Virus record (IMG/VR): IMGVR_UViG_2534682325_000021
Source: a virus
Lineage: Duplodnaviria > Heunggongvirae > Uroviricota > Caudoviricetes
Reading direction: 5' to 3' (one strand)
Length of the DNA: 40,581 nucleotides
Of the stretch, positions 9,001 through 12,000 are shown piece after piece. The position numbers were made by a program. Within the stretch, counting starts at the first letter, position 1, and each line of letters opens with the position of its first letter.

Positions 9001-12000
9001 ATGAAGACTTATTGGTGTGGCTGAAATTTGTACAGCTTTAATGTGCCTCGTGACAGAGGGGCATCGGGTTGTGGTGAACTCGGTAGGTTGGCAGCAAATT
9101 TAATCGAATATTGGTAGTCTGAGTTCTTATGTGTATTTTTTTAGTCAGTTGCTAAATGATACATAAATGACTTATTAGCCCCGCCATCGCTTTGTACGGG
9201 GCGTTTATTTAATTTATCTTTTCAACATTTCCATGAATCAACAAGTCGTAGGCAAGAAATAGTTTCCTATACTGGGTTTTTAAATTGTCAACGTCGCATG
9301 CCTTGAATTGAACAAACGCTTCTTTTTTAACATAATCTTCAATCTCCTCTTTGGGGATATTTTTTATGTTCTTAATGACTATAGACAATTCTTTGTACTT
9401 TTTGAACGTTGCATCCTTTATATCTTTGATGTTGGTGTAAATTTTATTTGCATTGATTTTATCTAAGGTGATTTTATTGAGCAAGTCGTCTAGTTTTCCG
9501 TGGCGTTCAATGCGTTGATTTAGTTTTAACACATATTTAGCTGGCAAACTTAACTCTTTCAAATTACATGAGGTTATAGTTTTTGAAAATGGAAGTTGTA
9601 ATGAGTTTACTGAACCTAATATGAAATCTATGGCTAATTTATTAGATATTTCATTTTTATTAAATAAGTAGTCTTCAAGATAATTTATTTCTTTAACTTG
9701 TGTGAATACATACTTTTTATCGCCTAGAGCAACAACTAAATTTTTTCCTTGTTTAACACTTTCTTCAAGTCTGTCTAAGTCAGAAGGTGAAACCAATAGA
9801 GTATCTAAGTGCCCTTTTTCACCCTCATTAATGATAAGTGTTTTAATGGCTCTTTGATACCTTAAAACATCATAAGGTGAGAGCCCTTCATCAACAGCAC
9901 TGATCTCATCATAGATCTGTTTATAGTTATCTGTTTTAACAGATGTATATGTAATTTGTAGCTGTTGATCGGTAATCTGTTTTGGTACTACTTCTTGTTC
10001 ATTCTCTTTATATTCAATCAAAATTATTCTTTCAGCTGATTTTCGACCATCTTCTCTAGGTAGTTGTGAGGAAAAATCAGAAAGAAGTTTCTTTACATTC
10101 CTGTCAGTTAAAGAATATCCAAGAAAAACTATTGGATTTTTAATCATGTTAGATAGTATCTTGGCACTAATGAGTATAGATTTGTTGTCATATTTTTCGT
10201 AATCATCTTTATTTATGATTATTGAGTGTGGATCCTTTATATCACCATGGATTTTGTATAACTCACTCCATCCAATGGTATCTTCGAAAAAACCATTATT
10301 TCCAATATAGAGTTTTGGAGTTACATTTTGCTCTTGAAGTAAATTTTCTATGAAAGCATCATAATTTGTAGTGATGATTATCTTGGCCTTTTTTATTAAT
10401 GTTTTAAATGATGCTAATTCATCAAGATTTACATCCTTTCTGATTGTGTTATTAGAAAATCTTTGGCATATGGCGTATTTAAATGGTGAAATATCTTCAC
10501 TAAAAACCCTCTTGGCATCTAGTCCATTTAATTTTAATTTGCCAGTCCTAAACAATAGATTGTAATCATTTTCAATTTTACTTGCTGCCTCTGTATAAAT
10601 CTTATGATCGATATCATTATCACTGTTATTTTTATGTGATTCTTTTATTGTTAAAAGATAACTATAGAAATCATTTGTGGGATTTGTTATTTTCCAATAC
10701 TCGTTTAATAGCTCTTCCCACGTTGGGTAGTTCTCTAAATATCTTTTTGAAATGCCTGAGCCAATAAAGACTATTGGGTAATTTTTGAATTCAAAATTTT
10801 TTTTTGACATATCCATATACCTTAAGCTCTGCTTGAAACATCCATTCTATAAATTATGAGGATGTCAGCATGTCTCACCAAAACATCATCTGGTTATCTT
10901 GATGAAATCTGTCATTAATAATCTACCCATGTTTTCTATATGTCTGTGGCATGCTCCCAATAACTTTCCCAAATATAAATACCCGATTCATTTCGTCTTT
11001 TTCGATCGGGTCCCACGGTGAGTAGCTCTTGTTATCAGAGATAACCAGCAGCTTATCCTTCATCATTTGCAGGCGCTTTACATGGGCTGTGTCGTCGTAC
11101 AGAAACGCATAGATACCATCACCGTCGAAAGATTTAACAGTGATATCAACGAACAGAAGATCACCTGGTTCGATCGTTCCTGACATGCTGTCACCGCGTA
11201 CGTTAATGATGCGGATATTTTCTGCCTTCCTGCCATCGAACATGTGACGAGCATCGTCAAACGAGTACTCAACCGAGCGTAGGACTTCTACAAACTCACG
11301 GTTGATGACACCCGGCCCAGCACTGACTTCTATATCAAGAACGTCAATCTTGAAGTATTTGGAATGGTTGACAGCAGGCTTCCCTGATTGTTGACCGTCA
11401 TTTCTCATCGGGCCTATGCCTGATGAGAGCCACTCTGTTCGAACACCCAATGCATTAGCTATTTCAACAATTTTTGTTGAGCCGCGTGCGTTGCCGCTTG
11501 TCAGTCTCCAGATTGTGGGTTGAGCTACGCCAGACGCCTTTGCAAGAGCGCCTTGAGACATTCCAGATTGTTCCATCGCTAGGTTTAAGCGATCAGCAAG
11601 AGTTTCTTTTTTCATAAGTTTTAATTTATACGCTTGCGTATTGATGGTCAAAACACGTTTTGCTATTGATTGGATTAATACGCATTGCTATTATCCATTC
11701 ATTGTAATACCAATAGGAATTGATAATGACAAATCAAACCATTCAACTCGCAATCAGTATTACAGGTAGTCAAAAACGACTGGCAGATCTATGCGGTGTA
11801 GCCCACTGTTTGGCGTTGGCTACACGGTGGCGGAATTGATGCCCGCTATGTAATGAAAATTGTCTCAGCCACTGGTGGAAAGATTAAACCAGCAGATATT
11901 CGTCCCGACCTTGCACCATTGTTTAACGCGAGTAATTCTGCCGCCTAAACTGCGGCGTTAACTGATAAGGCAATGATTATGCAACCACTTACATACCAAC

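Follow-up and report, generated by a model that had tools for sequence, protein, structure and literature searches.

A short SIR2 gene beside the repressor of a lambda-like Escherichia coli O157:H7 prophage: a candidate single-protein abortive-infection system

NAD+ hydrolases (NADases) with a SIR2 domain are a major class of abortive-infection effectors. Those that are well understood are either large, as DSR2 is, or dependent on partners, as in ThsA/ThsB, SIR2-HerA, the prokaryotic Argonaute (pAgo) systems and Kongming. Here we describe a SIR2 protein of 535 aa that is encoded by one gene in the IMG/VR virus record IMGVR_UViG_2534682325_000021, a stretch of 40,581 nt that is called the window below. 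The element that carries the gene is a lambda-like prophage of Escherichia coli O157:H7, and the gene is found next to its cI repressor. We consider, with a probability of roughly 0.6 and largely by analogy with described systems, that the gene encodes a self-contained single-protein abortive-infection system, a short DSR-like NADase expressed in the lysogen. SIR2 effectors and the repressor-adjacent defence slot were both established ideas beforehand. New here are the fixed architecture of a short SIR2 domain with a helical domain, the exclusive pairing of these domains, the faster divergence of the C-terminal one, and a quantified tie to repressor-integrase modules across two phyla.

The best match by both sequence and fold is DSR2 of Bacillus subtilis. 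DSR2 consists of a Sir2 effector domain, a middle domain and a C-terminal sensor; it is tetrameric and is activated by the phage tail tube protein in monomeric form (PMC10981675). Like DSR2, the protein described here is a single protein whose N-terminal SIR2 domain has the same catalytic Asn and His, and in both the C-terminal region lacks a second enzyme domain. The two differ in size (~1005 aa against 535 aa), and no MID domain of the size seen in DSR2 is present here. An earlier note made from this sequence alone had placed the protein well below the DSR-type sirtuins in size, and it is indeed about half of DSR2. The profile of its C-terminal half showed no similarity to DSR2 at E<=10, and no DSR model was among the PADLOC matches at E<=1. 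Judged by sequence, the protein is not a member of the DSR2 family.

Other SIR2 systems share the core of the protein and differ in what surrounds it. Thoeris ThsA has a homologous SIR2 core (PADLOC ThsA, E=1e-21, residues 147-259 only; PDB 6lhx, 8bto), but the SLOG/STALD domain, which binds glycocyclic ADP-ribose (gcADPR) in ThsA, is missing here; no ThsB TIR gene adjoins the SIR2 gene, and none is found among the recurrent named neighbours of its relatives. Kongming KomC belongs to the same superfamily by its SIR2 core, but it has 264 aa and needs KomA/KomB, whereas no such genes are present here and the protein has an extra C-terminal half of 220 residues. SIR2-HerA (Gao_19 / Nezha) has a core of this superfamily too, but the window contains no HerA ATPase gene. 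SIR2-APAZ/pAgo (SPARSA) is represented by weak Aga_SIR2 matches (E=3e-4, residues 142-247), but no Argonaute gene is adjacent. The PADLOC models matched at E<=1 were PDC-S25, ThsA, Aga_SIR2 and PDC-S65 only. Lactococcal AbiH is likened to sirtuins in one paper (PMC13064643); no AbiH model was among these PADLOC matches, and no direct comparison of the two proteins was made.

In position, the counterparts are lambda RexAB and Salmonella BTP1 BstA, which occupy the slot after the repressor and before oL/N that is used for lysogen-expressed abortive-infection genes (PMC8585504). They show no sequence or domain kinship with the SIR2 protein: RexAB is a two-protein system of sensor and membrane component, and BstA is not a SIR2 protein. 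No Rex family was found among the Pfam or PHROG matches, and one gene is present here, so that the equivalence is positional only.

The gene and the parts of its product are as follows.

9209..10816, minus strand: SIR2-CTD gene (open reading frame; Pfam SIR2_2, PADLOC PDC-S25, PHROG 2695, NCBI annotation)
9881..10816, minus strand: SIR2 (Rossmann) effector domain, residues 1-312 (AlphaFold model, pLDDT ~90; Foldseek)
10364-10366 and 10247-10249, minus strand: codons of the catalytic residues Asn151 and His190, respectively
9692..9880, minus strand: connecting region, residues 313-375, with the motifs EGLSPY..LRYQ and GKN.VVALGDKK
9212..9691, minus strand: all-helical C-terminal domain, residues 376-535, the proposed sensor

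The earlier note had reported an open reading frame (ORF) of 535 aa at 9209-10816 (-) with four sirtuin-type motifs. The frame was recovered together with all four motifs, VFIGSGIS at residues 16-23, TTNYD at 149-153, IHGD at 189-192 and GYSLTD at 233-238. It ends in a TAA stop codon (9209-9211) and has two possible ATG starts, 10816 (535 aa) and 10810 (533 aa). An AAGG Shine-Dalgarno sequence (10820-10823) is placed 3 nt ahead of the first ATG and 9 nt ahead of the second, and the NCBI protein WP_000038831.1 ("SIR2 family protein", 533 aa) starts at 10810. Because of this 9-nt spacing and the NCBI start, 10810 is the likelier start. The GC content was 0.29-0.32 over the gene versus ~0.5 in the exo-bet-gam and cI flanks, in agreement with the earlier description of an AT-rich gene between flanks of about 50% GC. 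An ORF of 1.6 kb in 30%-GC DNA is far past what chance would give, and matches to hidden Markov models (HMMs) settle that the gene is real.

The HMM search that the earlier note had proposed gave a significant match to Pfam SIR2_2 (PF13289) over residues 146-285, with E=1.2e-23 and 84.2 bits against a gathering cut-off of 24.5. A profile built from 49 homologues at 40-75% identity was searched against PDB sequences, and it matched just the SIR2 cores of defence NADases, over residues 145-245 (DSR2, E=2.6e-14; ThsA, E=1e-12; KomC, E=3.9e-12). TTNYD aligned with residues 131-135 of DSR2, which equates N151 with DSR2 N133, and KIHGD aligned with KVHGD of DSR2, which equates H190 with H171. Alanine mutation of N133 or H171 lowers the NADase activity of DSR2 (PMC10981675). 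Among the 49 homologues N151 and D153 were invariant, and H190 was kept in at least 90%. The AlphaFold2 model of the protein (mean predicted local distance difference test score, pLDDT, 84) has three parts, with a helical insert within the SIR2 domain at about residues 46-143. When the model was compared with the PDB by Foldseek, DSR2, ThsA and KomC took the top ranks, with template modelling (TM) scores of 0.62-0.64 on chains that consist of the SIR2 domain only. The SIR2-type domain with catalytic Asn and His suggested from the motifs was thus confirmed by the HMM and by the DSR2 alignment.

The chemistry of this domain might be different. In this reading the protein still serves defence, but its SIR2 domain would use NAD+ to ADP-ribosylate or deacylate one particular protein or nucleic acid of the phage or the host, with no bulk loss of NAD+. 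The catalytic Asn and His are common to sirtuin transferases and hydrolases, so that sequence cannot tell these chemistries apart, and the helical C-terminal domain could be a module for substrate binding. The nearest relatives by sequence and fold, however, are all defence NAD+ hydrolases. The canonical sirtuin family Pfam SIR2 (PF02146) was not matched at E<=1, and there is no Cys4 zinc module: the three cysteines of the protein (C116, C420, C512) include no CxxC pair and none of them is conserved. We regard a transferase or deacylase as unlikely, and NADase activity as the probable one.

The connecting region had a pairwise identity of 52%, yet a pLDDT of 39-65. Residues G332, L337, L341, V361, A363 and G365 within it were invariant in the 49 homologues. 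It may serve as an interface between subunits of an oligomer, or as a switch between conformations.

The C-terminal domain was modelled confidently as helical, with likeness to generic alpha-solenoids only. Searches of the C-terminal half against Pfam and PDB sequences gave only noise (RBB1NT, E=0.014; PadR and ribosomal protein S8, E>0.07), no domain was detected in residues 296-535, including SLOG or any other known ligand-binding domain, and the viral models of BFVD gave no Foldseek match at E<=0.001. The earlier note had been unable to assign this half, and no specific relative in sequence or fold was found here either.

A profile of the C-terminal half was then searched against 1.84 billion representative proteins. 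It matched 111 representatives, clustered at 50% identity, of which the full-length ones were all 515-546 aa long with the domain at about residues 290-535. Every full-length match that was checked had an N-terminal SIR2_2 domain, and the short matches that were examined were gene fragments. From this search, the architecture is fixed and the C-terminal domain is not shared with other effectors; the idea that it is shuffled onto other effectors was dropped. Mean pairwise identity was 35% in the C-terminal domain versus 53% in the SIR2 domain, and this faster divergence fits a role in recognition. By analogy and from its divergence, the C-terminal domain is proposed to be the sensor.

The family to which the protein belongs has already been catalogued. 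The earlier note could match it to no described type, and this did not hold: in the PADLOC run which that note had proposed, the candidate family PDC-S25 was matched over its full length (E=2e-235, 780.8 bits; residues 1-528 of the protein cover positions 1-526 of the 528-position profile), and the protein also matches PHROG 2695 (E=3e-203), whose function is not annotated. No NCBIfam match was found. The type is therefore not an unseen one, PDC-S25 being a predicted defence candidate of computational origin. The homologue search at the protein level returned 382 clusters at 90% identity, with protein length conserved, mainly from Bacillota but also from Enterobacterales. Of 5,426 complete E. 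coli genomes, 166 contained the exact DNA of the gene, and those listed were mostly O157:H7. In deposited phage genomes the gene was not found at the nucleotide level; protein-level homologues were present in Streptococcus phages Javan227, SVep1 and IPP23 and in Lactococcus phage BK5-T.

The surroundings of the gene in the window were defined by the following features.

10923..11615, minus strand: cI-type repressor, helix-turn-helix (HTH) plus S24 autopeptidase (Pfam Peptidase_S24, E=1.5e-18, and HTH_3; NCBI gene coordinates)
11676-11693 and 11711-11728, no strand: oR operators (pattern search)
8899..8942, minus strand: oL operators (8900-8917, 8925-8942) and overlapping pL-like promoter (pattern search, promoter scan)
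11623..11651, minus strand: pRM-like promoter TTGACC-17-TAAATT, 5' of cI (consensus scan alone)
10817..10922, minus strand: spacer of 106 nt between cI and the SIR2 gene, with the AAGG site 10820-10823
9178..9202, minus strand: G+C-rich hairpin, putative 3' end of the immunity transcript (RNA fold -18.6 kcal/mol, z=-2.35)

The operators are copies of an 18-bp near-palindrome, CAATAGCAATnnCTATTG, two of which are found at 8900-8942 (oL) and two at 11676-11728 (oR); counted on both strands, the window holds 8 matches to it versus 0.41 expected. A pL-like promoter, TTGACT-17-TATTGT at 8927-8899 (-), overlaps oL. From the positions of the operators and of pL, the SIR2 gene is located between cI and oL, in the position of rexAB in lambda, as the earlier note had argued. 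On the same strand cI precedes it, and kil (PHROG 294), gam, bet and exo lie beyond its downstream end. The neighbours in the window (kil, gam and the repressor) include no TIR, HerA or Argonaute gene, which agrees with the earlier view that no partner is adjacent. The same view had excluded ORFs of 60 aa or more from 8826-9208, and those present are just 20-32 aa long; a small partner ORF between the SIR2 gene and oL was dropped as a candidate. A structured RNA in that interval was also dropped, the homology with Leclercia and Morganella being confined to the coding region.

In the spacer 10817-10922 no terminator-like or promoter-like site was scored, and its fold was like that of shuffled sequence (z=-0.10); a terminator separating cI from the SIR2 gene was accordingly dropped. 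The hairpin at 9178-9202 begins 6 nt past the SIR2 stop codon. Because the gap has no predicted terminator or promoter and the hairpin follows the stop codon, co-transcription of the SIR2 gene with cI is plausible.

The same slot holds other cargo in related phages. The region from cI to N of lambdoid phages is a known mosaic hotspot which houses rexAB and bstA (PMC8585504). Phages 4A7 and PhiR47_2 have cI genes ~89-96% identical to that of the window, and their homology to the window breaks off at 8858 and resumes at 10923. Their slot holds two genes each:

PhiR47_2 (locus L011, 1803-3231): annotated GevT toxin and GevA antitoxin
4A7 (locus L012, 1798-3214): hypothetical protein and ASCH-domain protein

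In 4A7 the oL/pL layout is kept in the same place with this different cargo. No relevant paper on GevT/GevA was found in the literature. By sequence comparison, the slot between cI and oL is a cargo hotspot.

We compared 119 related loci, 62 of them genome loci from different species and 57 non-identical loci on viral contigs. Individual relatives are placed as follows.

Leclercia homologue (75% identity): directly after an unrelated prophage repressor, same strand
Morganella homologue (63%): directly after an unrelated repressor, same strand
Yersinia homologue (72%): order cI, SIR2, N, the repressor being again an unrelated one
Streptococcus phage and S. suis homologues: between repressor and integrase
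Listeria homologue: between a repressor/Ltp cluster and a serine integrase
Lactococcus phage BK5-T homologue: after the lysin; a promoter and terminators of its own are annotated
Bacillus velezensis homologue: after the lysis cassette of a PBSX-like element
Enterococcus faecalis homologue: region like an integrative and conjugative element (ICE), with restriction genes
Orbaceae homologue: among sugar-transport genes, with no prophage nearby

In the viral loci an HTH gene was upstream in 41 of 57 (40 copies on the same strand), and a tyrosine integrase was directly downstream in 31 of 57 (30 on the same strand; the gap has a median of 289 nt when all copies are counted). Three neighbour families of ImmA/IrrE-type (ImmA/M78) metalloproteases were found in at most 24 of the 57 (13, 8 and 3). 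The commonest neighbours in the 62 genome loci were integrases (14), HTH genes (11) and type I restriction subunits (5 and 3). No partner gene was conserved in the 119 loci, no neighbour family being present in more than 14 of the 62 genome loci, and neither TIR nor HerA was among the recurrent neighbour families named by Pfam. From these counts, the gene is a stand-alone cassette with a preference for the prophage lysogeny module, in both phyla. A second SIR2_2 protein (342 aa, Pfam E=1.7e-9) was seen in Xenorhabdus kozodoii (L023, 172-1200), ~3 kb upstream of the PDC-S25 homologue; this shorter SIR2_2 neighbour family was seen in 2 loci only.

The same comparison bears on the possibility that the protein is an effector only, activated by a small molecule or by another protein, in the manner of ThsB/gcADPR or KomA/KomB, that comes from an unlinked host gene or from the infecting phage. 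The solved proteins most closely related to the SIR2 core include ThsA and KomC, and the invariant or near-invariant polar residues of the C-terminal domain (Y379, D382, Y383, N483, R517, D524) could line a ligand pocket. Yet no neighbour family is conserved in the genome and viral loci, and the searches above detected no known ligand-binding domain. Dependence on a host-specific partner is also hard to square with a gene that travels by itself among unrelated prophages of two phyla. We find an unlinked activator quite unlikely.

A role outside phage defence has also to be considered, either lysogenic conversion or prophage housekeeping, for example by coupling NAD+ or metabolic state to maintenance or induction, or a function in host physiology. 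The lysogeny module also houses conversion genes that do not serve defence, and the Orbaceae homologue has its place among sugar-transport genes. The solved SIR2_2 relatives, however, are defence NADases; the neighbours include type I restriction-modification genes and the ICE-like region with restriction genes; and a fast-diverging C-terminal domain is typical of arms-race sensors. A non-defence function is, in our judgement, very unlikely.

For the single-protein abortive-infection system that we favour, the following course is proposed. In the lysogen a transcript from pRM would pass through cI and the SIR2 gene and end at the hairpin just before oL, like that of rexAB in lambda. The SIR2 NAD+ glycohydrolase would be kept inactive in the resting state, tied through the connecting region to the helical C-terminal sensor. 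Upon superinfection the C-terminal domain would detect a phage cue, which by analogy with DSR2 would most likely be a phage protein. The SIR2 domain would then be freed, NAD+ would be hydrolysed, and the infection would be aborted. The earlier note had likewise pointed to an NAD+-depleting abortive-infection effector made in the lysogen, a reading that is here an inference.

Several points weigh against this proposal. SIR2 domains can also be ADP-ribosyltransferases or deacylases. The catalytic His is replaced by Asp in one homologue, P0113, and the proposed sensor has no specific structural relative. The case for transcription with cI consists of the spacing and the lack of a predicted terminator, and the hairpin at 9178-9202 shows no clear U tract when its sequence is read. 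Literature searches on PDC-S25, on WP_000038831 and on SIR2 in prophages turned up a single mention, among predicted systems; no functional test, phenotype, mechanism or structure was found. The 100% identity across O157:H7 genomes is clonality and not evidence of selection. Finally, this prophage shows signs of degradation, namely a frameshifted cro and an insertion sequence (IS).

The last point raises the question of whether, in this window, the prophage is decaying and the gene has become an inert passenger, unexpressed or without a remaining role. Besides the frameshift in the cro-like gene and the IS3-family insertion, this prophage, as found in a reference strain, has a frameshifted tail gene and other pseudogenes. 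Against this, neither the SIR2 ORF nor the repressor upstream of it is disrupted, and the protein retains every catalytic residue and every residue that is invariant in the family. A prophage with defective cro would, if anything, leave the genes driven by pRM permanently on. We give this explanation very little credence.

A bolder form of the abortive-infection reading may also be considered. The protein would be a minimal defence sirtuin of ~530 aa with sensor and NADase in one chain; its helical domain would sense the cue directly; and the gene would have spread as a one-gene cassette between Bacillota and Enterobacterales while sparing its own prophage on induction. A one-gene sensor-NADase that resides in lysogeny modules must have some built-in way to do so. 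We put this form forward tentatively, at somewhat less than even odds.

Other features of the prophage were observed in the course of the analysis. The cro-like (YdaS-family) gene opposite cI at 11726-11948 (+) is frameshifted and is annotated as a pseudogene in NCBI; compared with PhiR30_1 and 4A7, in which Cro is intact, the window is short of 5 nt within 11690-11980. The prophage can probably no longer leave the repressed state. No N-like antiterminator ORF was found between pL and kil (8622-8898, -), and the relatives in Yersinia have the order cI-SIR2-N. A put-like structured leader in the 277 nt after pL was tried as an explanation of the missing N and dropped (z=-1.45, no Rfam match). 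Near the int/xis end, at 2014-2946 (-), an IS3-family (IS1203-like) transposase with an ALIL frameshift pseudoknot splits a DUF4222 gene according to the reference annotation.

In the nin region, at 16445-17241 (+), a HEPN-domain gene (138 aa) overlaps an ORF of 133 aa. The HEPN protein matches the PADLOC candidate PDC-M28A (E=1.8e-7), and the locus may be a second defence candidate or a toxin-antitoxin candidate of the prophage. At 15301-15485 (+), matches to isrK and C4 antisense RNA upstream of a P22AR-type antirepressor gene suggest a secondary immunity module in which the antirepressor is controlled by RNA. The region 19829-22538 contains a tRNA Ile-Arg-Arg cluster, STnc100 and the anti-GcvB small RNA AgvB, directly followed by a DUF6645 gene. 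The tRNA cluster, STnc100 and AgvB are typical of the Stx phages of enterohaemorrhagic E. coli. No stx genes are present.

If the family is active, it would provide a small and genetically simple system, native to E. coli, for the study of sensor-driven SIR2 switching. It would also be a natural test of the repressor-adjacent slot as a general home of lysogen-expressed defence genes, and a case for how an induced prophage escapes its own NAD+ depletion. Should the minimal-sirtuin form prove true, the protein would be a compact new model for the activation of SIR2 effectors and for prophage self-immunity. Many E. coli O157:H7 genomes carry the gene, so phage typing of this pathogen, and its control by phages, could be influenced by it.

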